DNA from: a virus | Taxonomy: Duplodnaviria > Heunggongvirae > Uroviricota > Caudoviricetes | Length of the DNA: 37,692 nucleotides | Direction: 5' to 3' (one strand) | Virus record (IMG/VR): IMGVR_UViG_2645727775_000019 | Location: 1-37,692 of that record | Part shown: piece after piece, positions 1 to 36,005 of the stretch | How the letters are laid out: each line of letters opens with the position of its first letter | How positions within the stretch are numbered: the stretch's first letter is position 1 | Program-made: the position numbers and the translations under genes | The notes under the pieces: model-generated | Databases searched by the model: none | What the model saw: only the letters and a program-made list of their open reading frames with translations | What the model was told of the DNA's origin: nothing

Positions 1-1158
1 ATGCTCACCGTTAAGCAGATTGAAGCAGCAAAGCCGAAAGAAAAACCATACCGCCTACTCGATGGTAATGGCCTGTACCTTTATGTCCCTGTATCAGGGA
101 AAAAGGTATGGCAGCTTCGCTACAAGATTGACGGTAAGGAGAAAATCCTGACCGTCGGAAAATATCCGCTTATGACTTTGCAGGAGGCAAGGGATAAGGC
201 ATGGACTGCGAGGAAAGACATCTCGGTTGGCATCGATCCGGTAAAGGCGAAAAAGGCTTCGTCTAACAACAATTCCTTTAGCGCCATTTACAAGGAATGG
301 TACGAGCACAAGAAGCAAGTCTGGTCAATAGGCTATGCAACTGAACTTGCAAAAATGTTTGATGACGACATTTTACCTATCATCGGCGGTCTTGAAATTC
401 AGGATATTGAGCCGATGCAACTGCTGGAAGTAATCCGCAGATTTGAAGATCGCGGTGCAATGGAACGAGCCAATAAAGCCCGCAGAAGATGCGGCGAGGT
501 TTTCCGTTACGCTATTGTCACCGGAAGGGCTAAATATAACCCGGCACCTGACCTTGCAGACGCCATGAAAGGATACCGCAAGAAGAACTTCCCGTTTCTT
601 CCAGCAGACCAGATCCCTGCATTCAACAAAGCACTGGCAACATTTTCAGGAAGCATCGTATCGCTCATTGCGACCAAAGTTTTACGCTACACAGCCCTAA
701 GAACGAAAGAGCTTCGTTCCATGCAATGGAAGAACGTCGATTTTGAAAACAGGATTATCACTATCGACGCCAGTGTGATGAAGGGCCGCAAGATTCATGT
801 TGTTCCTATGTCAGACCAGGTGGTTGAACTTCTCACTACGCTAAGCTCCATCACTAAACCAGTATCAGAGTTTGTTTTTGCCGGGCGCAACGATAAGAAG
901 AAGCCAATCTGCGAGAACGCGGTATTGCTTGTGATCAAACAAATCGGCTATGAGGGTCTGGAAAGCGGTCACGGATTCAGGCATGAATTCAGCACAATTA
1001 TGAACGAGCACGAATGGCCTGCTGACGCTATTGAAGTGCAACTGGCACATGCCAACGGCGGATCTGTGCGTGGGATTTACAACCATGCTCAGTATCTCGA
1101 TAAACGCAGAGAAATGATGCAATGGTGGGCGGACTGGCTTGATGAAAAGGTGGCATAG
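1..1158 (+). CDS. intS: P4-family tyrosine integrase (IntS-like)
   Basis: 385-aa ORF; N-terminus MLTVKQIEAAKPKEKPYRLLDGNGLYL is the typical P4-integrase arm-binding domain; C-terminal catalytic domain; length matches IntS. Confidence 0.9.
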   Translation: MLTVKQIEAAKPKEKPYRLLDGNGLYLYVPVSGKKVWQLRYKIDGKEKILTVGKYPLMTLQEARDKAWTARKDISVGIDPVKAKKASSNNNSFSAIYKEWYEHKKQVWSIGYATELAKMFDDDILPIIGGLEIQDIEPMQLLEVIRRFEDRGAMERANKARRRCGEVFRYAIVTGRAKYNPAPDLADAMKGYRKKNFPFLPADQIPAFNKALATFSGSIVSLIATKVLRYTALRTKELRSMQWKNVDFENRIITIDASVMKGRKIHVVPMSDQVVELLTTLSSITKPVSEFVFAGRNDKKKPICENAVLLVIKQIGYEGLESGHGFRHEFSTIMNEHEWPADAIEVQLAHANGGSVRGIYNHAQYLDKRREMMQWWADWLDEKVA

Positions 1159-1164
1159 CGCCAC

Positions 1165-1554
1165 CTACATCACAGGGCAATCATCAAACTCACCAGAACG
1201 CGCATCATTGATGATGTACGTTATCACCCCAAACAAATGCGACTCATCATCAAACAGGCTGGTCGGCTTTGGTATCTCCTCTACCGCTCCAGTCTCAAGA
1301 TTAATCAGATGTGGTTTAGGGTAGCGCTTGTATCGCTTCACTCTGAACTCATTGTCAACTGAACAAATCAGCAACGAGCCATCAAACGGCATCAGTGAAC
1401 TGTCAACGACGAGCAAAGCACCGTACATGATGCCTTCTCGCCAGTACGTTTTCCCTGACCGCATGAAGTACGTTGCCGATGGTTTGCTGATTAACGTCTC
1501 GTCGAGCGATATGCGTTGCTCAACGTAGTCTGCAGCCGGACTCGGGAATCCCAT
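1165..1554 (-). CDS. UmuD'-like (HumD-like) S24-fold protein, starting at the position of the UmuD self-cleavage site
   Basis: 129 aa beginning MGFPSPAADYVEQRI, matching UmuD from Gly25 onward (recalled sequence); true ATG start; the GDSM nucleophile motif reads GKTY here. Confidence 0.75.
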   Translation of the reverse strand: MGFPSPAADYVEQRISLDETLISKPSATYFMRSGKTYWREGIMYGALLVVDSSLMPFDGSLLICSVDNEFRVKRYKRYPKPHLINLETGAVEEIPKPTSLFDDESHLFGVITYIINDARSGEFDDCPVM

Positions 1555-1573
1555 GATGCACCTCAGTCATCAA

Positions 1574-1593
1574 TACTGGATAAAATCACAGTA
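1574..1593. promoter_or_regulatory. LexA (SOS) box overlapping the promoter of the UmuD'-like gene
   Basis: Plus-strand TACTGGATAAAATCACAGTA fits TACTG-N10-CAGTA; lies ~20 nt upstream of the minus-strand ATG and overlaps a TATACT -10-like hexamer. Confidence 0.6.
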
Positions 1594-1971
1594 TAAATGC
1601 TCTATATCAAATCAGCAAAGGAATAGGATAAGAATCTTTGCTGAACCGGTCTATATCATGAGACCCTTTGCAGGTTTACCAGAAAAAACCTTAGGTTTTA
1701 ATGAGCTAACAAAACGTGTCCTCCTAATCATTCTGGGTGCAAAGGTTAAGTTAATTCCTATGAATGAAATTCATGAAACAGTGCAAGTACAAGATGATAA
1801 AGAAGGTCTGCCATGAGTGCTTAAGGATGTGTTTGAATAATCCGCTATGCGTATGACATCCCTGGCTAAGGATAGTTCGCCATGTAGAGTTGTAGAATTG
1901 ATACAGGCTACCAGCATAATATCCAACGATAGCCTGCTCCGTATGTAGACATTATCTATATATAGATCCAC

Positions 1972-2946
1972 CTAAGTATATATTTTTGAGTTTGGTAATG
2001 CCTTCCTGAGCGCTTTAAAAACTATTGAAAGTACGTATTTATATACGTATGCAAAAATACAAACAATTACAACAAACAAGACGGATTTTATCCCATCTGA
2101 ACTTATAAACGATAATAAATGGTATGCTTTCATCAAAAACATGAATTCTATAAGATACATCTCGTAAGATAGTATGCCAATAAATTTCAATGGTGTTATG
2201 TTTATATTTGCAACTCTAAGAATCGATGTAATTCCAATTATAAGAAATGCGCTTGCTATATTTGTTGCTGCATAGTCAAAAAAACTAACATCAATCCCTT
2301 TATAAAAATAAAGGGATAAAATTAAGGACACCAAAGAAACTATGACAAACAAAAGTAATATCCATTTATCTATTGCATATCCTTTGACTTTTTCATACAC
2401 CACTCCAATTAGTGAACCTAGTGGAAATGCAGCAACGTATAGTCCGGCCCCTGCTGGAGGAGGGAATATATCTGCGTTTTTGTAAAGCAATACAGAAAAA
2501 AGGAAAAGGAAGGCTATTTTAATATTAATAGAGATATTAGCGCTAAAAATTAGAAAAAAAGCCAGATACCATATTATTATAAAAGATATATACCACATAC
2601 TAGGATCTATAGTGGCATTCAAATCAATGCCTAGTATGGTAATCGCTAAATGATAAAAGTCATCATTTGTAATTGCTGGATGTCCAAAAGCAATAATCCA
2701 AACAATGGTTATAATAGCGTATGGAACAAGTACTTTTGATAGCCTTTTTGAAAAAAAAGAATCCAACCCTGATTTAATGTAAGATTGCACAAGGCCAAAG
2801 CCTGACAGCATAAGGAATAGAGCAACACCATATGCCCCGGCGTGCGGGATTACATTTACATGCCCAAGCATGACAAGGAGAATAGCAACGCCTTTTAGTT
2901 CAATGGTGTGATCTCTATCAAAAATTACATTACTTATTTTTCTCAT
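1972..2946 (-). CDS. Acyltransferase family 3 integral membrane protein (O-antigen/LPS O-acetyltransferase-like), probable lysogenic conversion gene
   Basis: Multi-TM protein with N-terminal RKISNVIFDRDHTIELKGVAILLVMLGH motif typical of acyltransferase_3; very AT-rich compared with flanks; start taken at internal Met MRKISN. Confidence 0.75.
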   Translation of the reverse strand: MRKISNVIFDRDHTIELKGVAILLVMLGHVNVIPHAGAYGVALFLMLSGFGLVQSYIKSGLDSFFSKRLSKVLVPYAIITIVWIIAFGHPAITNDDFYHLAITILGIDLNATIDPSMWYISFIIIWYLAFFLIFSANISINIKIAFLFLFSVLLYKNADIFPPPAGAGLYVAAFPLGSLIGVVYEKVKGYAIDKWILLLFVIVSLVSLILSLYFYKGIDVSFFDYAATNIASAFLIIGITSILRVANINITPLKFIGILSYEMYLIEFMFLMKAYHLLSFISSDGIKSVLFVVIVCIFAYVYKYVLSIVFKALRKALPNSKIYT

Positions 2947-3149: not shown

Positions 3150-3581
3150 CTATTCATCTGGAAAGGTTGGCCATATCACATGCTCTGGATCGGTTGAGAC
3201 ATTGATAGATTTAACGTCATTTTTAAATGCCAACCACGCCGACAGTTTCTCCTTGTTGGTGTCGTTGATTTCACCGAGCATCAGTTCTGTTCGCCAGTCG
3301 AGCATAGTTTCGTCCGCATGTGCCAGCAGTTGCTGGCGAATTTGTTCAGCGGCAGCAATAAGTTCGTCGTGTGTCGGTGGAGGCATATCCCCCCAGGCAG
3401 GATGTCCATCATCACCCGCGATGCGTACTTTCCCTTGCAACGTTCTGTCTTCAATAAATTCCAGGTAAGTGTCATATGTCACTTCGACAATATCAGCAAG
3501 TTCCCATCCGGCCTGTTCATGTTTCGCCACATCATTTTTAGCGAAAAAACTATTATTTGAGGCGCTATAAACCATTTCCAT
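3150..3581 (-). CDS. Tail fiber assembly protein (Tfa)
   Basis: 143 aa; start 1 nt after tail fiber stop; C-terminal region resembles Tfa chaperones. Confidence 0.8.
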   Translation of the reverse strand: MEMVYSASNNSFFAKNDVAKHEQAGWELADIVEVTYDTYLEFIEDRTLQGKVRIAGDDGHPAWGDMPPPTHDELIAAAEQIRQQLLAHADETMLDWRTELMLGEINDTNKEKLSAWLAFKNDVKSINVSTDPEHVIWPTFPDE

Positions 3582-3582
3582 A

Positions 3583-4374
3583 TTAATACCCTACTGCAAT
3601 ATAAAAAACTGATTCACCAGCGTCCTGAGAACCTACCCCCGGAACGCCAGACCAGGCTTTGTTAATGAATGCAAAACCGGTATTACTCAGATCAGATGCT
3701 CTGTACATCGGGCTGAACATCCAGTAGTTGGCTACATATGTTTGTCCGAAAACAATGCCATAGCACTGATTTGTAAATGGCGTAGAAAATAATTTTCCAC
3801 CAGTACCAGCGATAGTCCCGAATCGCATCTGGAACCCATTCGGGAAATTAATTCCGCCTGCCGGTGAAGACCAGTAAGACATATCAGGTATTTGCCCAGC
3901 ACTATTTCCCACGTTTTTTGTTGCAACGGTTCCTAACCCAAGATTAGCTCTTGCATCAGATTTATTTGTTAACTCATAAAGATTATTTTCCTTTTGAAGT
4001 GCTCCTGTTATGCGTAAATCATCACCAGCGGCAACGGTTCCGACTGTCGTGCCCACATCCCTTTTCGCCGCTTCTCCTAAACCAAGGTTTTCGAGAGCCG
4101 TTTGCACAGTGCCATCCGATTTGATATCGCCAAACGGATTCTTGCGGCTTAACAGCAGCGCACGAAGTGCGGTAAGCAGCTGGTCATGCCGCCCTTTCTC
4201 CAGGCTGGCACCGGAGGCCTCCACCACGCTACAAAGTTCTTCCTGCAACATGTCAAAGTAGTCATCATCCAGATCGGTGGCAGGCGTGCCAGTCTGGGGG
4301 TTACCACGGGTAAAACCGTTCTTACCCGCGCCGAACTTATCCTTCTGCGCGGTTTTCGTGTCTATACGATGCAT
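3583..4374 (-). CDS. Tail fiber protein (short, 263 aa)
   Basis: N-terminal [21 protein letters not shown] and repeated ANLGLG-type fiber motifs; position just upstream of Tfa. Confidence 0.75.
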
Positions 4375-4377: not shown

Positions 4378-4962
4378 TTACTCCGGATATTTAAAAATTA
4401 CGTAGGTATGCGAAGGGCAGAGTTTGTTAAGCACGCACTCGACAACGGTGTCGCCCCAGATACGCAGTGCGGAATCACAGGGATCGCCACATGTCATCCA
4501 GGTGGTGTTGGTGGCGGCTGGCATGTTGACCTGCCAGTAATACCGCCATTCCGGCGCATTCACCGCGTCAGTACAGGCCGATGAGCAGGTGAACGTGCTT
4601 TTATCGTATCGCGTGATAGTGGCGTCTGGTCTGCCCAGGGCAGCAAGCTGTGCAAGGTAAAAATCCTCATTGATGCCGCCCGCCAGATTAACCTTCGCAT
4701 CCAGCCGTTGCTGACGCTGGCGAAGGGTCTGTGTCCCTGCGGGAATACATTCATCCGGCAGACCGCACAGACGCTCCCAGCGGTTTATCAGTTCAGTGGT
4801 GGTGCGCGGATCCAGCTCCCGCATCAGGGCATCCGCACGCTGATGAACACGGGTTAATGACGGTGCCGCACCTGCAATCGCCGGATCGCTGGCTGACCAC
4901 GCCGGACCGGGCGGCAGCAGTGTCGACAACAGACGGATGTAATCATCGTTTGTCACGTCCAT
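4378..4962 (-). CDS. Mu gp48-like / YmfQ-like tail protein (DUF2313-type)
   Basis: 194 aa; position after baseplate J-like gene; resemblance to YmfQ-type tail proteins. Confidence 0.65.
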
Positions 4963-6011
4963 GAAATCGTCCCCAGAACCGCCAGTTCATTTTTTGCAAT
5001 GGAGATATTGTCCGCCGGTGCAAGCAACTGATGGCTGTATTCCCCGTTCGCACCGGAAATCGCTTCACTGATACGTGACACCTTCAGTTCTCCCTGCGGA
5101 TAACCATCACGCAGCAGGAACGAACGCAACTCGGCGGTGATGGCAGCCCGTATTTCCGGTGTGTCCGGCGTCACGCGGATATGAAAATCCACTTTATGCG
5201 CCACCGGCCTGAACACATACAAATCAGAGCCTGCCACCGGGGCCAGTGGCCAGATATGTTGTCTTGCCGCCGTTTCCGTTGATTCTTCCGGAATGGGATT
5301 AATCAGGTCACTGCTGGCAATCATCACACCGACAGTTCCCGTTCCCATCCAGTGACGGTATGTCCATGCGCGGGTAATGCCGGGCACTTCTTTAGCCCAG
5401 ACGACATAGTCCCCGTCAGCCCCGCCCTGCGGCGTCCAGTAATACCGCTCAATGACGCGGGCGCGCCACGTTTCCAGATCTTCAGTATCGAATCCGCCAG
5501 TCAGGGTATCTGCAACACCGGAAGACGGCAGACCATTCACCGGCGTGACCAGGATTAATGCCGTACCGTCGTCAGCGTTACCGACCGCGCCTGTAGTTGA
5601 GCAAGTGATCGGCACACGCAGGACACCACCGGAGCTGGTTGCATCGGCAGTTGCCGTGTACTGAACCAGGTCATCGCGCTGAATCACGCTCCCGGCAGTC
5701 ACCTTCAGGCCATCGCTGACACCTTCCCAGCGCATATACCCGCTGGCAGCCGTGGCCCCCTTGCGCGGACACCGTTTCATCGCAGCATGTCGCGCCAGCC
5801 AGGACTCATCGCACAGGTCAGGCAGCATATTCATTGCCAGATAATCGATGTACCCGTAAACCGTATGCAGCGCCGCCGCATACACCTTTGCCCGCACGTC
5901 TTCATCCATGCGCCGGAGCGTGTCGCTGACGTCCAGCCTGGCGAATAAATCGTTACGGAGCATACTGATATTTTCTGCCAGCGTCGGGCGCTGAAATTCA
6001 CTGTCCGCCAT
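4953..6011 (-). CDS. Baseplate J-like protein (Mu gp47-like)
   Basis: 352 aa; synteny with gp45/gp46-like genes; baseplate J family resemblance. Confidence 0.8.
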
Positions 6012-6426
6012 GCGTTATCGCACTCCACAGATCATCAAAAGAAATCATTACCGGTCCGTCACGACGCCAGAGAGTGATACTGTTACCCAGCTCATTAATC
6101 CCGGTGCGGCGGATATCCAGATCAATACGGGACACCACGCCGTCATCAATCATCCATTGCAGGCATTCGCGGATATACCCCCTTACCGTCTGCACCAGCT
6201 GATTGGTCAGTTTGCTGCGCTGAAGCAGCCACAGTCGGGAGCCGTAACGGTCATTCTGTACCGCAGGCCAGGTATCCCCCCACCATCCCATCGGGACGTC
6301 GGCGTTGTCATCAGGCTCCGCCCGCCGCCAGGTGAACAGGGAAATCACCACGGCGCGGGTCAGCGGATCCAGCGGTGCGCTGGCGCAGGTGCGTTTACCG
6401 TTCACCGTCAGCCACAGTTCCATCAT
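5998..6426 (-). CDS. Mu gp46-like baseplate protein
   Basis: 142 aa; between baseplate V-like and J-like genes. Confidence 0.7.
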   Translation of the reverse strand: MMELWLTVNGKRTCASAPLDPLTRAVVISLFTWRRAEPDDNADVPMGWWGDTWPAVQNDRYGSRLWLLQRSKLTNQLVQTVRGYIRECLQWMIDDGVVSRIDLDIRRTGINELGNSITLWRRDGPVMISFDDLWSAITHGGQ

Positions 6427-6971
6427 GCCTCCATCGCTTTATCAGGTTTGTCGGTGTTACTGCCCTGACCGTTCTCTCTGTGACGATGCCCGTTATAGGC
6501 AAGCCGCATCGCTGACATGGTGGTGCCGCCGGAGTCGCACAGGTCTTTCACCTGTCCTGTCACTTCCAGGTCCATTTCAAAACGTGCTTTAGGTGAATTG
6601 CGAAACGTGATCGTTTTACCTGCACCGTCCACCACGATCCCCTCCCGGGTCAGCGTCACGGACTGCCCCTGATCGTCATAGACAGCCACCTCACCCGTCT
6701 GCAGCCCTTTCAGGCGGTAGCGCCGGTCCGACACCGTAACAACCACCGCATGAGAACGGTCGCCATCCGGAAACAACACCACCGCTTCCGCACCGCTGTT
6801 TGCCCTTGCGGTAAAACCGTAGGGTTCAAGATGTTCAACCCCGGCTTTGGGTTCACCGGCAATCAGAGACACATCCACGGTCTGACATTTCGTGGCGGCA
6901 CTGATGCTTTTCACCACTGCCCGCCCAATCAGGCCGAGGAGTTGTCGCTGCATGGCTTCAATCGTCCTCAT
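6423..6971 (-). CDS. Baseplate assembly protein V / spike (Mu gp45-like)
   Basis: 182 aa; 4-nt overlap with downstream gene; family resemblance. Confidence 0.75.
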   Translation of the reverse strand: MRTIEAMQRQLLGLIGRAVVKSISAATKCQTVDVSLIAGEPKAGVEHLEPYGFTARANSGAEAVVLFPDGDRSHAVVVTVSDRRYRLKGLQTGEVAVYDDQGQSVTLTREGIVVDGAGKTITFRNSPKARFEMDLEVTGQVKDLCDSGGTTMSAMRLAYNGHRHRENGQGSNTDKPDKAMEA

Positions 6972-26432: not shown

Positions 26433-26433
26433 C

Positions 26434-27243: not shown

Positions 27244-27262
27244 ACTTCGTTTCTCCTCTTAA

Positions 27263-27652: not shown

Positions 27653-27975
27653 ACTTTCAGGCCCCTCTCATGTAACCAGTGGGCTGCACGCAGCCTGCCG
27701 TTTTCCTCACCGGCAAGCAGTGCGCGGATAATCCCGACCGCCTCGCTGTCGTCGTCCTTCACCGCGGTATGAAGCGTTATCCCCCGGGCCACGCCACGCT
27801 TTATCGTGATGACGCCTTTTTTCTCCAGTGCACGAAGATGCTCTACCGCTGCATTCACTGAACGGTATCCCAGCATGGTTGCCACCTCCTGATTGGTTGG
27901 CGGAAAGCCACGCTCTTTCTGGTAAGAAATCAGCATATCCAGCACCTGCTGCTGGCATTGAGTTAACGTCGTCAT
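27649..27975 (-). CDS. LexA-type N-terminal DNA-binding domain protein without peptidase domain
   Basis: 108 aa; QQQVLDMLISYQKERGFPPTNQEVATMLGYRSVNAAVEHLRALEKKGVI resembles the LexA winged-helix domain; no S24 domain follows. Confidence 0.55.
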   Translation of the reverse strand: MTTLTQCQQQVLDMLISYQKERGFPPTNQEVATMLGYRSVNAAVEHLRALEKKGVITIKRGVARGITLHTAVKDDDSEAVGIIRALLAGEENGRLRAAHWLHERGLKV

Positions 27976-28625: not shown

Positions 28626-29113
28626 TAAGCCCCCACGTAATTCCCTGACAGATACCACTCATCACCCGATACAGCGCGCTTGCTGCTTTTCCGTAAGCAC
28701 CGCTCACGATGCGCCAGAAAATTGTTTCGTTCTGGCTGGGAGTGGCTTTCACGGAATGCCGCCATCCACACCGTTGCAGCACGACGGTATAAGCCCCTTG
28801 ACTCCAGTTCTTCAGCCTGGCGGGTCAGGCACAAAATCACCCGGGGATCGTTAGTGCCGACATAGAAATTGCGCACAGGTCTGGTTTCACGAACTGGTTG
28901 TGGTTCCGACTCCTGCGCTCTCTCAGTCAGGCGCGGGAAATGTCTGCGTGTATCTCCTTCACAACGGTGAGCCACACGCCCACTCTGACGTAACTTGCTT
29001 GCTGACTGCAGAACGCGCTGCCGTGAGTAACCTGCAAAAGCATCCGCAATGTCTCCGGAAGTACACCCCGGATGGGCTTCAATGAATTTCTGAACTTCAT
29101 TCAAAAGACTCAT
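28625..29113 (-). CDS. Hypothetical regulator with C-terminal ANR/PerC-like motif
   Basis: Start at ATG (MSLLNEVQKF) with GGGGGTG site; C-terminal RGLYRRAATVWMAAF resembles ANR-family small regulators. Confidence 0.45.
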   Translation of the reverse strand: MSLLNEVQKFIEAHPGCTSGDIADAFAGYSRQRVLQSASKLRQSGRVAHRCEGDTRRHFPRLTERAQESEPQPVRETRPVRNFYVGTNDPRVILCLTRQAEELESRGLYRRAATVWMAAFRESHSQPERNNFLAHRERCLRKSSKRAVSGDEWYLSGNYVGA

Positions 29114-29115
29114 AA

Positions 29116-30057
29116 TCACCCCCTGAATCCTGCCGGGATCTGGCTGTAGTCCACATTGTCGTAACTGGCTTTGAAGTACGGGTCTTCACGTTTTTCTGTG
29201 TGCGTGCTGACGGACGGCGATAAGCGCAGGGAAAGCTCATCCCATTTTTCCCGCAACTTCGACGGGCTGAGCACGTTACGGCACCAGAACGGATCGCGGC
29301 TGACGCGGCTGTACATCTCGCAGATTTGTTTGTGAGTACGACCATCCTGCACACACATCAGGCGAATTTCGTTTGCCCAGGCTGTCCAGTTAGGTTCTTT
29401 GGGACGAACCACCTCGCCGTCACATTCGGCGGCCTGCTCGTACAGGGCGATGATTTTTTTCCAGAGCCACTGTGCGCAGGTCAAATCATCCTGCGTTCCC
29501 CACTGGCGCTTTTTAGGGCTGAATACAACCGCATCAGGATGGCGAGTTAAAAAATCCTGTTCATCCATCTGCGTGTCCGGTTGCGAAGCGTCCGGACGAG
29601 AAGGTTTTTTATCTGATGGATCATGTTTTGATTTTACTGACGGATCCCCGCCAGATTCTGACGGGTGAAAACCCGCTTTTTTGCCAGATTTCGACGCATC
29701 AAATTTTGACGGGTCAGATTTTGATGCGTCAGATTTTGACGGGTCAGAATCTGACAGTTGAGAAAATGCCGCTGCCTGAAGCTTCGCAACGTTAAGCTGA
29801 TAAACATTCGACGCATTGCGGTTACCCTGGCGACGCGCCTTACGCGTTAACCAGCCTTCTGCTTCCAGCCGTGCGATAGCCGTTCTGACGGTACTCATCC
29901 CCGCGCCAATCTGGCGGGCAATGGTTTCAATTGATGGCCAGCACACACCTTCGTCATTACTGAAATCAGCCAGGCGGGCCATAATTGCCACGCTGGATAA
30001 TTTCATGCCTGACGCTGCGCAACCATCCCATACATAGCCGGTTAATTTAGTGCTCAT
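29116..30057 (-). CDS. Replication initiator (lambda O-like, HTH N-terminal domain), origin embedded in gene
   Basis: 313 aa; N-terminal HTH replication-protein domain; central linker encoded by tandem DNA repeats (iterons). Confidence 0.7.
   Translation of the reverse strand: MSTKLTGYVWDGCAASGMKLSSVAIMARLADFSNDEGVCWPSIETIARQIGAGMSTVRTAIARLEAEGWLTRKARRQGNRNASNVYQLNVAKLQAAAFSQLSDSDPSKSDASKSDPSKFDASKSGKKAGFHPSESGGDPSVKSKHDPSDKKPSRPDASQPDTQMDEQDFLTRHPDAVVFSPKKRQWGTQDDLTCAQWLWKKIIALYEQAAECDGEVVRPKEPNWTAWANEIRLMCVQDGRTHKQICEMYSRVSRDPFWCRNVLSPSKLREKWDELSLRLSPSVSTHTEKREDPYFKASYDNVDYSQIPAGFRG
29653..29760. repeat. Iteron array (putative ori) inside the O-like gene
   Basis: Three perfect and at least two degenerate ~15-bp tandem units ATTTTGAC(G/A)(G/C)GTCAG, each with internal TGAC/GTCA symmetry; AT-rich stretch adjacent at ~29600-29645. 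Confidence 0.6.
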
Positions 30058-30226
30058 GACCGACCTCTATTTCCCTGAATTTACGACGAAACTGTTCGAG
30101 CGGACTGAAGCATTCATGCTCATAGCCTTCGCGGAGGTAGATAACCCGTTGTGTTTCCGGTTCCCAACGAATGACTCTGACGGGCACTCCGTAGTGATCT
30201 TTGAACCAGCGGTTAACTTGTCGCAA
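30047..30226 (-). CDS. Candidate DUF4222-like small protein (59 aa) in alternative frame, TTG start
   Basis: AGGAG 8 nt upstream of TTG; translation [59 protein letters not shown]; overlaps ORF 30067..30405. Confidence 0.4.
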
Positions 30227-30405
30227 AGGACTGTCTCCTTCTGCCGGTTGAAATCACCCACAGCCCACTCTGCAAAGCTGTGGGTTACAATTTCCCTGTC
30301 ACCTGGTACATTCACTGCATAGCAATATTCCACCTTCGCTTTTCCACCCGGAACAGGAAGCGCAATCAGTTGCGAGCGACGGTAGTGTGTTGTTAAACTG
30401 TTCAT
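30067..30405 (-). CDS. Hypothetical protein (ORF A); 3' portion probably not genuine coding
   Basis: ATG directly after the CII-like stop; first ~55 aa look protein-like, the remainder overlaps the alternative-frame small gene. Confidence 0.35.
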
Positions 30406-30971
30406 GCGTTAGTTTCTCCACAACCAGAAGCAATCGACGCCACGACGCCCGGAGCTGCACACTCGCGGGCGTCATTACTTTCTGAAATGCAAAAAATTTT
30501 GTAGACAAGTGCTGCATGCTCCTGCAGCTTCGAAATTGAGAGATACAGCTCGTCGTTAATTGCTGTCTTCTCATGCGGTTCCACCACACCGTCTTCGATT
30601 GCTGAACGAATCTGTTTTGAATAACTGCCGATCTGTTCAATGACTTCCAGCAGACGCTGGTTAATATCGGCGTTGTCCACATCCTCGACGTCAGGAAGAG
30701 ACACAAAGACGCCATTTGCAGACTGCGCCACAGCATCAGCAATGAAGTGAGTGCCACCAGCACGCTGTAAAACCATTGCCCATCCCAGCGGGAAAATCTG
30801 ATCGCCATCTGCACGAAGGCGGTTGAATAAAGCGTTTTCTGTTACATCGAGCCAGTCAGCCGCTTCAGCGTAACCACCCGGCAACGCCGCGATAGTTTTT
30901 CTGACAGCTTTCACGTACCACTCAGGCTGTTTTTCTATTTTCCAGTGATGCTTACCCACGATTAGCCTCAT
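30402..30971 (-). CDS. CII-like phage regulatory protein
   Basis: 189 aa immediately downstream of cro; resemblance to phage CII/CP76-type regulators. Confidence 0.55.
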
Positions 30972-31002: not shown

Positions 31003-31203
31003 CTAATCTTTCGGATAGATATCCGGTCTTAAGTCAGATTTCGTAATTGCACCTGACGTGCATTGCTCAAGTTTTTTAGCCAGCACAAAACTGGCTTTTT
31101 TATAGCCATTGAAAACCAGCCGTAAGTAGCCAGGTGTTGAGCCAACTTTTCCGGCCAACTCGCCCTGCTGTTCTTTGGTTAAAGAGTCCCAATACGCTTT
31201 CAT
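31003..31203 (-). CDS. cro: Cro-like HTH repressor
   Basis: 66 aa from MKAYWDSLTKEQQGELAGKVG; divergent from cI across operator region; longer ORF-track version would run into cI. Confidence 0.75.
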   Translation of the reverse strand: MKAYWDSLTKEQQGELAGKVGSTPGYLRLVFNGYKKASFVLAKKLEQCTSGAITKSDLRPDIYPKD

Positions 31204-31293
31204 ACAATATGTACCTCCTGTGTACATATTACATGATTGAAATGAACCTTCAAGATACTTGTACCTTAACGGTACAAGGGTTTTAATTTCGTT
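31204..31293. promoter_or_regulatory. OR-like operator/promoter region between cro and cI
   Basis: Perfect palindromes ATATGTAC-N7-GTACATAT (31207-31229) and CTTGTACC-N5-GGTACAAG (31258-31278), both of form TGTAC-N7-GTACA. Confidence 0.6.
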
Positions 31294-31968
31294 ATGAAAA
31301 CAATCCATGACATCCGGCGGTCTAACGCCAGAAAACTGAGAGATGGTGTTGGCGGGAATTCTTCCTTTGCCACTATGATTGATCGCGAGCCAACCCAGAC
31401 CAGCAGGTTTATGGGAGATGGTGCTACTAAAAATATCGGTGACAGCATGGCACGACACATCGAAAAATGTTTCGACCTACCTGTCGGATGGCTCGATCAA
31501 GAACACCAGACAACGAACATCACAAAAAAACCTGATGTTTCAATCACTAATAAACAAATCACATTAGTCCCTGTCATATCATGGGTACAGGCCGGAGCAT
31601 GGAAAGAAGTTGGATATTCTGAGGTTGATTTGAGCACAGCAGAAACGTATCCCTGCCCTGTACCCTGTGGGGAAATGACTTATATCTTGCGGGTGATAGG
31701 TGATTCAATGATTGATGAGTACCGCCCGGGAGACATGATTTTTGTCGATCCTGAAGTACCTGCCTGCCACGGTGACGACGTTATTGCATTGATGCACGAT
31801 ACAGGTGAAACCACCTTCAAAAGGTTAATAGAAGATGGGACACAGCGTTATCTCAAAGCGTTAAACCCAAACTGGCCTGAGCCTTACATTAAGATCAACG
31901 GTAATTGCTCTATAATTGGTACAGTGATTTTCTCAGGAAAACCAAGAAGATACAAAATCAAAGCCTAA
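31294..31968 (+). CDS. cI: CI-like repressor (HTH plus S24 autopeptidase domain)
   Basis: 224 aa; C-terminal GDSM Ser and FKRL Lys dyad intact. Confidence 0.85.
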   Translation: MKTIHDIRRSNARKLRDGVGGNSSFATMIDREPTQTSRFMGDGATKNIGDSMARHIEKCFDLPVGWLDQEHQTTNITKKPDVSITNKQITLVPVISWVQAGAWKEVGYSEVDLSTAETYPCPVPCGEMTYILRVIGDSMIDEYRPGDMIFVDPEVPACHGDDVIALMHDTGETTFKRLIEDGTQRYLKALNPNWPEPYIKINGNCSIIGTVIFSGKPRRYKIKA

Positions 31969-32212: not shown

Positions 32213-32419
32213 ATGACCGCGCGTAGACCAAGGGAGGAAAAAGTGGGAATAGTTAGAAATCAAGCAGATATATTGAAAATCAGCTCTGAATTACTTGGAG
32301 TTTTGAAAAGTGAGCTCACCGCACATGGCATCGAGCCCACTGACGAAAATTTAAGATGGGTTTTGTCGATTATTCAACAATCACTCAAGCCCAGCCTCAG
32401 CAAACTTTTTATCGAGTAG
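32213..32419 (+). CDS. Hypothetical small protein (68 aa; alternative GTG start at 32243 with GGGAGG site)
   Basis: AT-rich; Arg-rich N-terminus MTARRPREEK; first gene after pL-like promoter. Confidence 0.4.
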   Translation: MTARRPREEKVGIVRNQADILKISSELLGVLKSELTAHGIEPTDENLRWVLSIIQQSLKPSLSKLFIE

Positions 32420-32572
32420 TGCTTCGAACTTATCGTAAAGCTTGCTTATGTCGTCTATCGGGTTTTCTGACGTACTGTAATTTTTATCTGATGTCATGGC
32501 AGCAGTCTGATATGCAGTGTGAGTCTTAACCGATAGTTGGAATAAATAAAGAATTTTTTCTTCTTTGGTCAT
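32381..32572 (-). CDS. Hypothetical small protein (63 aa), convergent and overlapping with previous
   Basis: ATG with AAGGAAA site; MTKEEKILYLFQLSVKTHTAY...; 39-nt 3' overlap with the plus-strand small gene. Confidence 0.4.
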   Translation of the reverse strand: MTKEEKILYLFQLSVKTHTAYQTAAMTSDKNYSTSENPIDDISKLYDKFEALLDKKFAEAGLE

Positions 32573-32682
32573 AACTATTTCCTTCTTGGCTATATGAAAA
32601 CACCAAGATACCACCGAGCCTGAAGTGGTGAAAAGACAGGCACATAACAGCTAAGTATTTTCAACCAAAGAGAATCCTTAGC

Positions 32683-32960
32683 GTTGTGGTGAATGCGGCT
32701 CAGCGCACGCGGGTTAAGGTTGAGGCTGACAGTCGACCTTCTGTGGATACCCACCCGTCTGGTGTGCAACCTTCGCCAGGCACCGGGAGGCACCCGGCAC
32801 CACAACTTTATGCTGTGTGTAGTCCTGGCGGTACCAGTTTGTACCCTTGCTTCCGGCTGGTACCGTCCTTTTTACAAAACAGAGAAGAGCATCACCGGAC
32901 GACGGGCTCATAACCCAATCCATCCGGGCGGCTGCCACCGCAGGTGTTCTTCTCTGTTTT
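32683..32960 (+). other. GC-rich non-coding segment with multiple long-range inverted repeats (candidate structured RNA or cis-regulatory element)
   Basis: GTTGTGGTG/CACCACAAC (9 bp), CGGTACCAG/CTGGTACCG (9 bp, then CCTTTTT), AAACAGAGAAGA/TCTTCTCTGTTT (12 bp); translations in all frames are not protein-like. Confidence 0.3.
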
Positions 32961-33010
32961 GTGGAGAAACTAATCGGCCTTGCAGGGTCGATATGATGAG
33001 GAGCAGCAAA

Positions 33011-33373
33011 ATGGCTAGCGAACGCAGTACTGATGTGCAGGCATTTATCGGGGAGCTGGACGGCGGCGTATTTGAAACCAAAATCGGCGCAGTTCTCAGT
33101 GAAGTCGCTTCCGGTGTGATGAACACGAAAACCAAAGGTAAGGTCTCACTCAACCTGGAAATCGAACCATTTGATGAGAACCGTGTGAAAATCAAACACA
33201 AACTCTCATATGTTCGCCCGACTAACCGCGGGAAAATTTCCGAAGAAGACACCACCGAAACGCCGATGTATGTCAATCGCGGTGGTCGCCTGACTATTCT
33301 GCAGGAAGACCAGGGACAGTTACTGACTCTTGCCGGTGAACCTGACGGAAAACTCCGCGCAGCAGGTCGTTAA
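33011..33373 (+). CDS. yfdP: YfdP-like prophage protein
   Basis: 120 aa from MASERS with AGGAG site; the ORF-track N-terminal extension is non-protein-like. Confidence 0.6.
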   Translation: MASERSTDVQAFIGELDGGVFETKIGAVLSEVASGVMNTKTKGKVSLNLEIEPFDENRVKIKHKLSYVRPTNRGKISEEDTTETPMYVNRGGRLTILQEDQGQLLTLAGEPDGKLRAAGR

Positions 33374-33438
33374 TATCGTTTTTAATTAACTGATTATTTA
33401 TCTCATCACTGAATATCTTTATATAGTGAGGACTTATT

Positions 33439-34263
33439 ATGTCTCAGAACTTAGACGCAACCGCAATTAATCAAATCCATGCCCTTATTTCTGCTCAGGG
33501 TGTTAATGAAATTATCAGTAAGATTGGTGCCGATGCTGTGGCATTGCCTGAGAATTTCCGCATTCATGATCTGGAAAAATTTAATTTAAATCGCTTCCGT
33601 TTCCGTGGTGCGCTTTCCACTGCCAGCATCGATGACTTTACCCGTTATTCTAAAGATCTTGCAGATGAAGGCACCCGCTGCTTTATCGATGCTGATAATA
33701 TGCGTGCCGTCAGTGTGCTTAACCTGGGTACTATTGATGAACCAGGTCACGCAGATAACACCGCCACTCTCAAACTGAAAAAGACAGCACCGTTCTCTGC
33801 TCTGTTGTCTGTTAACGGCGAGCGTAACTCCCAGAAATCACTGGCAGAATGGATTGAAGACTGGGCCGACAACCTTGTGGGCTTTGATGCTAATGGTGAC
33901 GCCATTCAGGCAACAAAAGCGGCTGCGGCAATCCGTAAAATCACGATTGAAGCAAACCAGACCGCTGATTTTGAAGATAATGACTTCAGCGGCAAACGCT
34001 CCCTGATGGAATCTGTCGAAGCGAAGACCAAAGACATTATGCCAGTGGCATTTGAATTTAAATGCGTTCCGTTTGAAGGTCTGAAAGAACGTCCGTTTAA
34101 ATTACGCCTCAGCATTATCACTGGCGATCGTCCTGTACTGGTTCTGCGCATTATTCAGCTGGAAGCGGTGCAGGAAGATATGGCTAACGAATTTCGTGAT
34201 CTGCTTGTTGAGAAATTCAAAGACAGCAAAGTAGAAACCTTTATTGGTACTTTCACCGCCTGA
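33439..34263 (+). CDS. yfdQ: YfdQ-like protein (DUF2303-type)
   Basis: 274 aa; size and position match yfdQ of CPS-53. Confidence 0.7.
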
Positions 34264-34390
34264 TTTCATTACTGCAAATGCCCCTGCGGGGGCATTTATG
34301 GAAACGTAATTAACTCAATAATCACCGGATGGTGAGGGCTTCCTTTTACCCAAACTCAGCGCGGTGCAGCGCATATACGTGGAGAACAAA

Positions 34391-34927
34391 ATGTCATTTA
34401 TTAAAACTTTTTCCGGGAAGCATTTTTATTATGACAAGATAAATAAAGACGACATCGTGATTAACGATATCGCGGTTTCCCTTTCAAATATCTGCCGCTT
34501 TGCCGGTCATCTTTCTCACTTCTACAGTGTCGCCCAACATGCGGTGCTTTGCAGCCAGCTGGTGCCGCAGGAATTTGCTTTTGAAGCGTTAATGCATGAT
34601 GCAACAGAAGCGTATTGCCAGGACATCCCCGCACCACTGAAACGCCTTCTTCCTGACTATAAACGGATGGAAGAAAAAATAGATGCAGTAATCCGTGAGA
34701 AATACGGGTTACCTCCTGTTATGAGCACGCCAGTGAAATATGCCGATCTCATTATGCTGGCAACCGAACGCCGTGATCTCGGGCTTGATGATGGCTCTTT
34801 CTGGCCTGTACTGGAAGGCATCCCGGCAACAGAGATGTTCAACGTGATTCCACTGGCACCGGGTCATGCCTACGGGATGTTTATGGAACGTTTTAACGAT
34901 TTATCGGAGTTACGCAAATGCGCATGA
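34391..34927 (+). CDS. yfdR: HD-domain phosphohydrolase (YfdR-like 5'-deoxynucleotidase)
   Basis: 178 aa from MSFIKTF with GGAG site; H...HD metal-binding motif (LMHDATEA). Confidence 0.7.
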   Translation: MSFIKTFSGKHFYYDKINKDDIVINDIAVSLSNICRFAGHLSHFYSVAQHAVLCSQLVPQEFAFEALMHDATEAYCQDIPAPLKRLLPDYKRMEEKIDAVIREKYGLPPVMSTPVKYADLIMLATERRDLGLDDGSFWPVLEGIPATEMFNVIPLAPGHAYGMFMERFNDLSELRKCA

Positions 34928-35280
34928 ATGTTTTCGAAATGGAAGGGTTTCTTCGCGGGAAATGTGTACCGCGAGATCTGAAAGTGAACGAAACAAATGC
35001 TGAGTACCTGGTACGTAAATTCGACGCGCTTGAAGCTAAATGTGCGGCACTGGAAAACAAAATAATACCAGTGTCAGCTGAACTGCCACCAGCAAATGAA
35101 AGTGTTCTGTTATTTGATGCTAATGGAGAAGGCTGGCTGATTGGCTGGCGTTCTCTCTGGTACACCTGGGGACAAAAAGAAACCGGAGAATGGCAGTGGA
35201 CATTTCAGGTTGGGGACCTTGAAAACGTCAATATCACTCACTGGGCAGTAATGCCAAAAGCACCGGAGGCTGGAGCATAA
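34918..35280 (+). CDS. yfdS: YfdS-like protein
   Basis: 120 aa; overlaps upstream gene; Trp-rich C-terminal domain. Confidence 0.6.
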   Translation: MRMNVFEMEGFLRGKCVPRDLKVNETNAEYLVRKFDALEAKCAALENKIIPVSAELPPANESVLLFDANGEGWLIGWRSLWYTWGQKETGEWQWTFQVGDLENVNITHWAVMPKAPEAGA

Positions 35281-35585
35281 TGACCACATTTACCAATAAA
35301 GAACTGATTAAAGAAATCAAAGAACGAATCAGCAGCCTAGAGGTTCGAGACGATATTGAGCGCCGTGCTTATGAAATCGCACTCGTATCTCTGGAAGTAG
35401 AGCCAGATGAACGCGAAGCCTATGAATTATTCATGGAAAAGCGTTTCGGTGACTTAGTAGATCGTCGGAGAGCAAAAAACGGCGATAACGAATACATGGC
35501 ATGGGATATGACTCTCGGTTGGATCGTCTGGCAGCAACGAGCTGGTATCCATTTTTCAACAATGTCACAGCAAGAGGTGAAATAA
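35280..35585 (+). CDS. yfdT: YfdT-like protein
   Basis: 101 aa; start overlaps previous stop. Confidence 0.6.
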   Translation: MTTFTNKELIKEIKERISSLEVRDDIERRAYEIALVSLEVEPDEREAYELFMEKRFGDLVDRRRAKNGDNEYMAWDMTLGWIVWQQRAGIHFSTMSQQEVK

Positions 35586-35716
35586 TGGAGCCATACAGCC
35601 TCACACTCGATGAGTCCTGTTCATTTCTCAAGATATCCAGACCTACCATTGCTGCATCAATGCGGCTTTTTATTGCCTGATTTGCAGGTTCGATTCCATA
35701 TTCGGAGATAGCACTC

Positions 35717-35917
35717 ATGCAACACGAACTACAACCTGATTCACTGGTTGATTTGAAATTCATCATGGCTGATACTGGCTTCGGTAAGACCTTCATCTAT
35801 GACCGGATTAAGTCCGGCGACCTGCCTAAAGCCAAAGTTATCCACGGACGAGCAAGATGGTTATATCGTGACCATTGTGAATTCAAAAATAAGCTCTTAA
35901 GCCGCGCCAATGGGTAA
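35717..35917 (+). CDS. torI: AlpA/TorI-type excisionase (recombination directionality factor)
   Basis: 66 aa MQHELQPDSLVDLKFIMADTGFGKTFIYDRIKSGDLPKAKV...; winged-helix Xis fold family; adjacent to attR. Confidence 0.85.
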   Translation: MQHELQPDSLVDLKFIMADTGFGKTFIYDRIKSGDLPKAKVIHGRARWLYRDHCEFKNKLLSRANG

Positions 35918-35990
35918 AATAGCGGGTAAAATATTTTTCACATCTAAAAAACACCATTCCAATCAATCCCCTGCCGCCTCAAGTAGATGT

Positions 35991-36005
35991 CTGCAGGGGA
36001 CACCA
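35991..36005 (+). repeat. attR core: copy of tRNA 3' end (CTGCAGGGGACACCA)
   Basis: Acceptor-stem 3' half plus CCA; matches argW 3' end as recalled; plus orientation as expected when int lies downstream of the tRNA at attL. Confidence 0.6.

Follow-up and report, generated by a model that had tools for sequence, protein, structure and literature searches.

Positions 1 to 36,005 of the window (the whole stretch of 37,692 nt that was analysed) are confirmed to be a full-length, apparently undamaged temperate myovirus prophage of the SfV family, inserted in argW. It is an ordinary prophage, of a kind of E. coli and Shigella virus that is common and well described. As originally predicted it is apparently intact: the complete prophage gene set lies between these positions, and alignment to relatives revealed no inactivating lesion in any essential module, nor was a frameshift, stop codon or IS insertion found in any gene of the prophage. 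The accompanying claim that all modules were present without truncations held for every lytic-cycle gene, each of which is full length, but not for a phage-82-type Q gene, which is truncated at its 5' end. The combination of lambdoid control, HK97-type head and Mu-like contractile tail had been put forward as a notable mosaic; it is the published SfV-type architecture, which defines SfV and its relatives SfI, SfII and SfIV, phages of a family of UV-inducible, cos-packaging myoviruses (PMC3851460). The same architecture is visible in the annotation of the SfV record.

General features of the prophage

The prophage measures approximately 36.2 kb, the family range being 35.1–39.8 kb. It is 95–98% identical to SfV at the nucleotide level across ca. 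27 of 36 kb, and a further 1.4 kb (21120–22555) is collinear at 88.6%; the other SfV-collinear blocks (94–98%) are 4049–9363, 11735–21119, 24578–29191, 30369–32230 and 32607–35646. Segments unlike SfV match other deposited phage genomes, the tape measure and chaperone genes matching vB_EcoM-720R4, and the early-right/replication region vB_EcoM-720R4, vB_EcoM-689R6 and PhiR29. The holin, a 157-amino acid ORF, the C-terminus of the tail fibre and the tail fibre assembly protein have matches in prophages only, with no close counterpart in deposited phage genomes.

The structural, lysis, regulatory and replication proteins are all full length with respect to homologs in SfV or in E. coli prophages and phages, mostly with 92–100% amino acid identity; for the KilA-N, lysis, CII-like and replication proteins the values are 86–92% or less versus SfV and 94–99% versus E. 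coli homologs. Pfam matches were obtained for the integrase, terminase, portal, protease, capsid, connector, holin, Q, KilA-N, CII-like, cI and HTH replication proteins, while those for the tail and baseplate proteins were taken from the gene table of the source contig. The latter is a draft short-read contig (GCA_001265415.1, JHRL01000017.1) which is 100% identical to the window over positions 1–14374. A single draft contig supports the mosaic junctions.

With SfV the prophage shares its gene order, HK97-type head, cos packaging, Mu-like contractile tail and baseplate, a lambdoid cI/cro/Q control system in which cI and Cro give the same immunity type, and a cargo slot between the integrase and tail fibre genes. 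Unlike SfV, which possesses SfV Int/Xis and gtrA/gtrB/gtrV, it carries IntS/TorI at argW and a humD-like gene plus an acyltransferase as cargo. The two also differ in the tape measure, chaperone, tail-fibre C-terminus, fibre assembly protein, holin and replication protein, and a truncated Q82-type cassette occupies the place of SfV orf47/orf48.

Full-length argW prophages exist in complete E. coli genomes, as exemplified by strain C7 (NZ_CP010240.1, 4606045–4649108), the prophage of which lies at the same site with argW on the left and cscB on the right. Its layout is likewise intS, cargo including an acyltransferase, SfV-like tail, head and terminase genes, lysis genes, Q, cI, yfdP-T and torI. 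It differs in its capsid/portal allele set, its lysis cassette (with a GH19 endolysin), cI and cro, and has cargo of its own (IS fragments, an AraC-type regulator and a GIY-YIG protein); the DUF968 gene, the gene upstream of yfdP, and cscB are frameshifted in C7.

Integration module and chromosomal flanks

The integration genes, attachment site and right flank are as follows:

1..1158, plus strand: intS, tyrosine integrase of the KplE1/P4 (DUF4102 arm-binding) type (Pfam Arm-DNA-bind_3, Phage_int_M, Phage_integrase)
35717..35917, plus strand: torI, recombination directionality factor (excisionase), 66/66 residues identical to K-12 TorI
35991..36005, plus strand: attR core, 15 nt, CTGCAGGGGACACCA, an exact match to the 3' end of argW and to the K-12 att core
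36445..37692, minus strand: cscB, matching an "oligosaccharide MFS transporter" beside cscK/cscA/cscR in E. coli C7

Base 1 of the window is the intS start codon. The protein shows 99.2% amino acid identity to K-12 IntS and, in agreement with the original prediction of a P4-type integrase, contains the P4/DUF4102-type arm-binding, central and catalytic domains. The attL site and the intS promoter lie outside the window and are visible only in the source contig, where argW occupies -236..-162 and the attL core -176..-162. The right end of the prophage is exact; the attR core there duplicates the 3' end of argW. The att core has been given as CTGCAGGGGACACCAT (PMC2951348); in the window the 16th base, after the core, is G. 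The same publication describes the biochemistry of IntS/TorI, the uncoupled arrangement of integrase and directionality factor genes, and the movement of this module between the otherwise unrelated phages HK620, Sf6 and CUS-3 (PMC2951348). The chromosomal flanks are yfdC-argW on the left and cscB on the right. A csc-type sucrose permease had been expected next to the prophage, and the assignment of cscB is upheld by its matches to csc loci, including a second locus in which PfkB and GH32 genes adjoin the match.

Tail, head and packaging genes

The morphogenesis genes comprise:

3150..3581, minus strand: tail fibre assembly protein (Caudo_TAP)
3583..4374, minus strand: short tail fibre (PHROG tail fibre, E 1.5e-83)
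4378..9423, minus strand: Mu-like baseplate genes (gp48, gp47/J, gp46, gp45 and gp44/P homologs) and DNA-circulation protein (SfV orf15–20)
9448..13763, minus strand: tape measure (635 aa), tail assembly chaperone, tail tube, contractile sheath (497 aa) and DUF2635 protein
13772..15585, minus strand: tail terminator, neck protein, head closure protein and head-tail connector (Pfam Phage_HCP, Phage_connect_1)
15619..21061, minus strand: HK97-type head and packaging genes, namely major capsid protein, S78 prohead protease, portal, 53-aa ORF, TerL and TerS (Pfam)
21100..21140, no strand: cos junction, the SfV virion ends meeting at 21119|21120

The tail fibre shows 93% identity to its E. coli C41 prophage counterpart at the N-terminus and, over its whole length, 50% to SfV orf21. 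The baseplate and DNA-circulation proteins are 98–99.7% identical over their full length to the products of SfV orf15–20, the tube and sheath are 99% identical to SfV, and the tape measure (99.5%) and chaperone (97.2%) align full length with the C41 prophage. Over window positions 9464–15541 phage vB_EcoM-720R4 has 96.5% nucleotide identity. There is a 3-nt in-frame indel at the sheath/DUF2635 overlap. The terminator-to-connector proteins are 92–100% identical, full length, to SfV orf6–9 and the C41 prophage, and the head and packaging proteins 98.8–99.8%, again full length, to SfV orf1–5. The cos junction is conserved: at 21119|21120 the SfV alignment jumps from SfV base 1 to base 37074, and the surrounding 120 nt are ~94% identical.

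Lysis and late control

Between cos and the early genes the following features were recognized:

21178..21528, minus strand: terminase-associated HNH endonuclease (Pfam HNH)
21555..22137, minus strand: Rz/Rz1 spanins (Rz1 lipobox LLTGC)
22088..22564, minus strand: lambda-R-like endolysin (LysC family)
22551..22868, minus strand: LydA-type holin (Pfam Phage_holin_3_3)
22898..23371, minus strand: 157-aa membrane and coiled-coil protein, the first gene past the 82-type late promoter
23766..23839, minus strand: isrJ-family short RNA (Rfam RF01393, 64.9 bits, gathering score 37)
23855..24520, minus strand: chimeric second antiterminator gene, phage-82-type Q (Pfam Phage_antiter_Q, profile positions 21–217 of 220 only)
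24542..24670, minus strand: SfV-type late promoter region downstream of Q1, aligned to the region past Q in SfV and C7
24671..25423, minus strand: Q1, intact SfV/QuuQ-type antiterminator with a DnaJ-like zinc-finger region (Pfam Antiterm, E 1.3e-53)

The endolysin is 89–92% identical to those of SfV and C41. The gene for the 157-amino acid protein has 99.9% nucleotide identity to a "hypothetical protein" gene in three E. coli genomes, and its PHROG matches are weak only. Q1 is 99.2% identical to SfV Q over its full length; the homolog in the C41 prophage is frameshifted. A terminator scan placed a hairpin at 24542–24563, and SfV has a terminator annotated at the homologous place.

A foreign Q82-type cassette, with a late promoter and terminator of its own, separates the SfV-type late promoter from the lysis genes. 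In the chimeric Q gene a 22-nt microhomology (24444–24466) marks the in-frame junction between 18 codons from a small late ORF and residues 26–229 of a phage-82-type Q, of which the first ~25 codons are lost; the gene has 79% nucleotide identity to phage 82 Q, and the exact protein was found in the source genome only. An 82-type late promoter-like site (23871–23843) is followed by a terminator hairpin (23789–23768), and the isrJ-family RNA corresponds to the promoter-proximal terminated transcript of this promoter. The cassette could in principle disturb late transcription; the truncated Q itself looks dispensable, given that the Q of SfV type and the late promoter region belonging to it are undamaged.

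Early genes and immunity

The early and immunity regions contain:

25437..30971, minus strand: DUF968/HNH, KilA-N, RusA, LexA-like regulator, Dam methylase, PerC/YfdN, O-like replication protein (HTH_36), YmfM-like protein and CII-like YmfL (Pfam)
31003..31203, minus strand: cro, identical to SfV Cro (66/66)
31204..31293, no strand: operator region, ~93% identical to SfV
31294..31968, plus strand: cI, 223/224 identical to SfV cI (Peptidase_S24 profile positions 1–116 of 116)
32213..35585, plus strand: two small ORFs, YfdP (226 aa, full length), YfdQ, YfdR (5'-deoxynucleotidase), YfdS and YfdT (PHROG families)

The early-right genes have full-length matches in SfV, C7 and C41, and the DNA is 97.6% identical to vB_EcoM-720R4 over 24578–30472 and 96.7% to vB_EcoM-689R6 over 24576–30983. 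The DUF968 gene is intact here and frameshifted in both C7 and C41. The early-left proteins are 98–100% identical at the amino acid level to those of K-12 CPS-53 and to SfV orf28–32. Because cI is so nearly identical to that of SfV and retains the Ala-Gly, GDSM (Ser) and K motifs of self-cleavage, we infer that the prophage would be inducible.

Expected mode of action

Most probably this is a complete SfV-type prophage at argW which would work as its near-identical characterised relatives do. The LexA-like self-cleaving repressor cI would silence the prophage until SOS-activated RecA led to its cleavage. Early leftward transcription would then provide TorI which, together with a constitutive low level of IntS, would bring about excision, and early rightward transcription the O-like replication protein and the SfV-type Q antiterminator. 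Q-modified RNA polymerase would start at the late promoter that directly follows Q, pass all later terminators, including those of the inserted cassette, and transcribe the genes for lysis, cos-terminase, HK97-type head and Mu-like tail. Intact reading frames alone do not establish particle production, missense and regulatory defects being invisible to sequence comparison.

The element might instead be gene-complete but functionally defective, a cryptic prophage kept only as a carrier of lysogenic-conversion genes, through uncoupling of late transcription by the Q82-type cassette, missense changes or a mismatch between tail fibre and host. In favour of this, the Q82-type gene is truncated and chimeric, its restriction to one genome suggests a recent, untried rearrangement, two extra terminator-like hairpins now lie upstream of the holin, and the frameshifts in the Q and DUF968 genes of close relatives in other E. 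coli genomes show that the family decays readily. Yet the Q gene of SfV type is intact, as are the promoter region and the terminator that follow it, all matching their counterparts in SfV and the C7 prophage, and in lambdoid phages a polymerase modified by Q should read through the terminators it meets later. With no frameshift, stop codon or IS insertion in any gene and a size inside the family range, we regard a cryptic prophage as unlikely. Far less probable still is an assembly chimera of two related prophages joined at shared sequence, be it the Q junction or the 97–99% conserved structural genes. In its favour, the sequence comes from a draft short-read contig, one genome often contains several SfV-like prophages (median of 2 matching places, maximum 8), and at least one complete genome has an inter-prophage rearrangement involving an argW element; but the Q junction shares 22 nt only, less than the k-mers that assemblers usually employ, and the reading frame is kept across the fusion. 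Gene order is perfectly collinear with SfV from att end to att end, the attL and attR cores match, the flanks are those expected, and the closed C7 genome has the same overall layout. The complete SfV-type prophage is thus the reading which we retain.

Relation to K-12 CPS-53/KplE1

The original prediction of kinship to CPS-53/KplE1 agrees with the common argW site and att core and with the identity of IntS (99.2%) and TorI (100%). The suggestion that the K-12 element is a remnant was likewise substantiated by alignment to K-12 CPS-53, which revealed two deletions and the yfdM and yfdO fragments. K-12 aligns to window positions 1–1153, 4049–4312, 28359–29824 and 32992–36005 only. From this alignment CPS-53/KplE1 is evidently the remnant of such a virus, which suffered two internal deletions and exchanged its cargo. 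One deletion corresponds to 4313–28358 (tail, head, packaging, lysis, Q and most early-right genes) and the other to 29825–32991 (N-terminus of the replication protein, CII-like gene, cro and cI). K-12 yfdM is an N-terminal fragment of the Dam methylase, and yfdO a C-terminal fragment of the O-like replication protein, of the window prophage. In both elements intS and torI occupy opposite ends; YfdP/Q/R/S/T are 98–100% identical (YfdQ/R/S/T 99–100%) and YfdN 95%. The cargo of CPS-53 is the gtrA/gtrB/gtrS-type yfdGHI whereas here it is the humD-like gene and the acyltransferase, and CPS-53 is flanked by dsdC rather than cscB.

Cargo genes

The intS-proximal cargo would constitute lysogenic conversion genes:

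1165..1554, minus strand: humD-like gene, 129 aa, "pre-cleaved" UmuD' homolog (UmuD' structure match, Pfam Peptidase_S24)
1574..1593, no strand: perfect LexA-box palindrome, TACTG-N10-CAGTA, 20 nt upstream of the humD-like start codon
1972..2991, minus strand: Acyl_transf_3 membrane acyltransferase (Pfam PF01757, E 2.4e-17)

The HumD-like protein starts M-GFPSPAADYVEQRI, which is the exact N-terminus of UmuD', and its best solved-structure match is UmuD' (1umu, E 1.8e-21, query 2–118 to chain 1–114). Database relatives are named "HumD family translesion DNA polymerase". The LexA box is the sole exact match in the window, the chance expectation being 0.59 matches at up to one mismatch. In being UmuD'-sized, starting at the position of the UmuD cleavage product, having "HumD family" relatives and lying behind a LexA box, the gene resembles that of phage P1, the HumD of which is reported, as cited in PMC4713147, to be a functional UmuD' homolog (McLenigan et al. 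1999). Unlike P1-borne HumD, it adjoins the integrase of argW prophages of two morphotypes, the myovirus described here and a P22-like prophage in strain 19SZHZ803Rt. Where UmuD has its catalytic serine (GDSM), the aligned residues of the window protein read GKTY. No umuC-like partner gene is encoded in the window. Under LexA-box control, the UmuD'-like protein would act in SOS mutagenesis in the lysogen.

The acyltransferase gene has a GC content of 33% (GC profile). The protein is rare, only 37 relatives having been found, some of which are named OafA/YrhL-type acetylases; no phage homolog was found. Its location at the position of SfV gtrABV suggests a putative surface-polysaccharide O-acetylase, which would probably act in surface-polysaccharide acetylation in the lysogen.

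Ends of the element and recombination module

The element belongs to a well-known kind of prophage and holds nothing unexpected for E. coli prophages: it is an SfV-type temperate myovirus at argW carrying an IntS/TorI (KplE1-type) recombination module. The window has approximately 55 plausible genes, and both of its ends are start codons, base 1 being that of a 385-amino acid integrase and the last base that of a 415-amino acid minus-strand gene. Window 1-14374 is 100% identical to the source contig (JHRL01000017.1 of GCA_001265415.1), on which argW is located at -236..-162 (negative coordinates are bases upstream of window base 1). Since argW falls just outside the window, a tRNA scan of the window found no tRNA genes. 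The attL core, CTGCAGGGGACACCA, lies on the contig at -176..-162, where it forms the 3’ end of argW, and the same 15 nt recur as attR at 35991-36005; the duplication comprises 15 of the 16 nt of the published CTGCAGGGGACACCA(T). The element thus extends from -176 to 36005, ca. 36.2 kb. Of the boundaries originally proposed, 1-36005, the right one is exact, while the left one is an effect of the window cutting off the end.

The integrase, assigned by Pfam to the P4/DUF4102 type, is an orthologue of E. coli K-12 IntS; its gene begins 162 nt downstream of argW, is oriented as in K-12 and is transcribed inward from the attL end. At the attR end, uncoupled from int and 74 nt before the attR core, is torI (35717-35917), the product of which is identical to K-12 TorI at 66 of 66 residues. 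Inward IntS at attL, TorI at attR and a duplicated att core are the hallmarks of a KplE1/CPS-53-type module, and all were found. Modules of this type also have an intS promoter which overlaps attL and is repressed by IntS and TorI; that promoter region lies outside the window. In the KplE1 model the control of excision is exerted on the directionality factor, and the module is common to the otherwise different phages HK620, Sf6 and CUS-3 (PMC2951348).

Beyond attR a 440-nt spacer (36006-36444) leads to cscB. Two small ORFs (35987-36175 and 36195-36365) share 82-89% identity with the corresponding spacer of E. coli C7, in which cscB is frameshifted; it is intact in the window.

Relationship to Shigella phage SfV

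The best matches among phage records (megablast) are Shigella phages SfV, SfI, SfII and SfIV and Escherichia phages vB_EcoM-720R4, vB_EcoM-689R6 and SKA5. The alignment with SfV is collinear, with 94-98% nucleotide identity over window 4049-9363, 11735-21119, 24578-29191, 30369-32230 and 32607-35646, and 88.6% over 21120-22555. Both ends of the linear SfV genome meet at 21119|21120, within 120 nt of conserved sequence; this junction is the cos site as it lies in the prophage.

The HK97-type head and cos-packaging proteins (P27-type TerS, TerL, portal, S78 protease and capsid) share 98.8-99.8% amino acid identity with SfV orf1-5, and Pfam recognized the P27-type small terminase, TerL, portal, S78 protease, HK97-fold capsid, connector and head-completion proteins. 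The contractile tail and baseplate are Mu-like, with 98-99.7% identity to the products of SfV orf10-12 and orf15-20, which the SfV record annotates as homologues of Mu gp38-gp48; Pfam families here include Phage_sheath, Tail_tube, tape measure, Phage_Mu_Gp45, GP46, Baseplate_J (gp47-type) and Phage_Mu_Gp48. Within this region 9464-15541 is 96.5% identical at the nucleotide level to phage vB_EcoM-720R4, and the tape measure and chaperone are 99.5% and 97.2% identical at the amino acid level to those of a related prophage in E. coli C41. Control is lambdoid, with divergent cI and cro genes and a Q antiterminator upstream of the lysis genes. The remaining modules gave Pfam matches to a LydA-type holin, Antiterm-type Q, DUF968/HNH, KilA-N, an HTH_36 replication protein, a CII-like protein and an S24 repressor.

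The structural, packaging, lysis, regulatory and replication proteins are all full-length when compared with SfV or E. coli prophage and phage homologues, and most are 92-100% identical to them. Against their SfV counterparts, identities are lower for the KilA-N, lysis and CII-like proteins (86-90%) and for the replication protein (31%); E. coli homologues share 92-99% identity with all of these except Rz/Rz1, for which SfV is closest (90%). The early-right/replication region matches C7, vB_EcoM-720R4 and vB_EcoM-689R6. The gene set is thus complete for a lytic cycle, as had been claimed from the sequence. That there were no obvious truncations holds insofar as IS elements, frameshifts and internal stops were not found, the only indel closely inspected being a 3-nt in-frame difference at the sheath/DUF2635 overlap; it fails for a second Q gene, which is 5’-truncated and chimeric. 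In close relatives, by contrast with the window, the Q and DUF968 genes are frameshifted.

The element lacks two traits of the SfV family. The gtrA, gtrB and gtr(type) genes for O-antigen glucosylation and serotype conversion, which members of the SfV family carry between int and the tail fibre genes, are absent, their place being taken by a humD-like gene and an Acyl_transf_3 gene. SfV-type Int and Xis are likewise missing; homology with SfV ends at 35646, and IntS/TorI with att in argW are present instead.

The original prediction regarded the joining of lambda-like control, an HK97-like head and a Mu-like contractile tail as a notable mosaic. This does not stand, lambdoid control with an HK97-type head and Mu-like tail being the published architecture of SfV, which was reportedly first described by Allison et al. 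in 2002 (J Bacteriol 184:1974). Nor is its combination with the KplE1 module exceptional: a full-length element laid out in the same way occupies the argW-cscB interval of E. coli C7, and among the top matches for the left end most have intS beside SfV-type baseplate genes. The KplE1 module with the same humD-like gene also occurs on a P22-like prophage (one genome). No complete genome reproduced the whole window, and no complete E. coli genome covered at least 80% of either window half in one place. We rejected this as a sign of novelty: every module has a known counterpart with 94-99.9% identity, and the lack of a single matching genome reflects the shuffling of modules, not an element of a new type. 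In E. coli 2021CK-01784 (NZ_CP104371.1, 4596000-4637500) an SfV-like prophage begins with argW-intS and ends with a lambda-type integrase/excisionase beside ybhC, which looks as though a chromosomal rearrangement had joined two prophages.

Relationship to CPS-53/KplE1

Kinship with CPS-53/KplE1, the cryptic argW prophage of E. coli K-12, was confirmed by whole-prophage alignment. CPS-53 aligns solely to window 1-1153, 4049-4312, 28359-29824 and 32992-36005, and the shared proteins are highly conserved (IntS, 99.2% amino acid identity; TorI, YfdS and YfdR, 100%; YfdQ, 99.6%; YfdT, 99%; YfdP, 98%; YfdN, 95%). Three K-12 genes are identified as fragments: yfdM corresponds to the first ~90 residues of a 217-amino acid Dam methylase and yfdO to the C-terminal 122 residues of a 313-amino acid replication protein, both intact in the window, and yfdL matches the N-terminus of the tail fibre. 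CPS-53/KplE1 is therefore the same kind of phage after two deletions, which in window coordinates span 4313-28358 (24 kb) and 29825-32991 (3.2 kb). The two elements differ in cargo (yfdGHI, which are gtr genes, in CPS-53 versus the humD-like and acyltransferase genes) and in flank (dsdC versus cscB). The present element defines these deletions and provides a clean full-length reference for CPS-53/KplE1 before its decay. Because its IntS and TorI hardly differ from those of K-12, the source strain would lend itself naturally to work on how KplE1-type excision is controlled in a prophage that has kept its repressor and lytic genes.

In the window and in SfV, YfdP is a 226-amino acid ORF (32693-33373), of which K-12/RefSeq annotate the last 120 codons only. 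Its upstream part is frameshifted in several genomes, and the K-12 yfdP gene model is probably a truncated remnant.

Proposed life cycle

By analogy with near-identical characterised relatives, we infer the following steps. SOS induction would lead to self-cleavage of cI and derepression of the prophage. The repressor is identical to SfV cI at 223 of 224 residues (sole change I4V) and retains the Ala-Gly cleavage site, the serine of the GDSM motif and the lysine, Cro is identical at all 66 residues, and the operator region is ~93% identical; because of this conservation SOS derepression, and immunity resembling that of SfV, would be expected. The leftward operon ends with torI, and the autoregulated intS lies at the opposite end, so arranged that excision is expected to proceed as in the KplE1 model. 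The SfV-type antiterminator, Q1, and the region just downstream, including its terminator hairpin, are intact; late transcription would begin just downstream of Q1 (SfV-type promoter, about 24600-24670) and extend by read-through into the genes for lysis, packaging, head and tail. The SfIV paper (PMC3851460) characterizes the family as myoviruses that package from cos, respond to UV induction and have head proteins of the HK97 family; on this and on the cI self-cleavage motifs rests the prediction that the element is inducible.

The Q region

The window has two antiterminator Q genes in tandem:

24671-25423, minus strand: Q1, SfV-type antiterminator, 99.2% identical to SfV Q
24542-24563: terminator hairpin downstream of Q1
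23855-24520, minus strand: chimeric, phage-82-type Q
23766-23839, minus strand: isrJ-family short transcript (Rfam, 64.9 bits), which directly follows the 82-type Q and is flanked by a promoter-like site and a terminator

Where SfV has orf47 and orf48 between Q and the holin, the window has at 21583-24466 the lambdoid lysis/Q module of three complete E. coli genomes (98.3% identity overall, 99.9% over 22560-24466). The second Q gene is of the phage 82 type (79% nucleotide identity to phage 82 Q; PF06323). It is not a full-length gene with a start codon of its own: the PF06323 match spans only profile positions 21-217 of 220, and in place of the native first 25 codons there are 18 foreign ones, fused in frame to the part for residues 26-229 of an 82-type Q. 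The junction is a 22-nt microhomology (24444-24466) with the small late ORF that follows Q in C7-type phages, the first 18 codons of which supply the foreign residues. The chimeric protein is also encoded on the source contig, at the expected offset, and the exact protein was found in the source genome only; the two-Q arrangement was not found in the close relatives vB_EcoM-689R6, MS 69-1, 2012C-4221, C7 and SfV.

We interpret the chimeric Q as a recombination scar, probably a harmless one. The order of the elements, namely SfV-type Q, its late promoter and terminator, chimeric Q, second late promoter with the isrJ-like transcript, and terminator, would also suit a two-step antitermination relay in which Q1 switches on the chimeric Q, which then boosts or times the lysis and structural genes at its own promoter. 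The chimeric Q would in that case be expressed as the first late gene, and the first 25 residues of 82-type Q proteins would be dispensable. We consider such a relay very unlikely, and favour the scar.

The 82-type cassette carries its own late promoter-like site (about 23840-23870), isrJ-family transcript and terminator. IsrJ is a family of Hfq-binding sRNAs in Salmonella; at least in this cassette, it corresponds to the short transcript, ended by a terminator, that starts at a lambdoid late promoter. The ORF at 22898-23371, for a 157-amino acid membrane and coiled-coil protein, is the gene closest behind the 82-type late promoter, a position that in Stx phages belongs to the stx genes. Its 3’ part contains two terminator-like hairpins (23032-23054 and 22980-22996).

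Cargo genes

Two genes next to intS constitute typical lysogenic-conversion material, namely a UmuD’ mimic under predicted SOS control and a rare acyltransferase, and could affect mutagenesis and surface antigenicity:

1165-1554, minus strand: humD-like gene, 129 amino acids
1972-2991, minus strand: Acyl_transf_3 gene, 33% GC

The HumD-like protein starts exactly at the N-terminus of UmuD’, M-GFPSPAADYVEQRI. Its best match among solved structures is UmuD’ (E value 1.8e-21), aligned from chain residue 1, and its database relatives are named HumD family. Ahead of the gene, at 1574-1593, is the window’s sole perfect copy of the LexA box TACTG-N10-CAGTA; the stricter pattern CTGT-N8-ACAG was not found. 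Homology over the length of the fold from the N-terminus of the cleavage product, together with predicted LexA control, points to a HumD/UmuD’-like protein. Phage P1 HumD is reported to be a functional homologue of UmuD’ (McLenigan et al. 1999, as referenced in PMC4713147). The protein has GKTY where UmuD has the catalytic serine motif GDSM, and no umuC partner is present near the gene. An 87-amino acid plus-strand ORF (1553-1816) is probably not a gene; it matched no family and overlies the promoter and LexA box of the humD-like gene. The same pair of intS and humD-like gene is found on the P22-like argW prophage of E. coli 19SZHZ803Rt.

The possibility of a defence island beside int or Q was dropped after PADLOC found no defence systems in ten cargo or unknown ORFs, bar one insignificant match to Csx27. 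The acyltransferase has few database relatives, the closest being 99% and 84% identical and the others, in Citrobacter, Enterobacter and Aeromonas, at most 60%. A tblastn search of 50,697 phage records gave no relevant match, and its assignment as an Sf6 Oac-type phage gene was rejected. Because it occupies the slot of the O-antigen modification genes of the SfV family, our guess is that it may be a surface-polysaccharide O-acetylase. The same gene is carried at the same locus in GCA_037121665.1 by a remnant prophage of ~10 kb with different baseplate genes.
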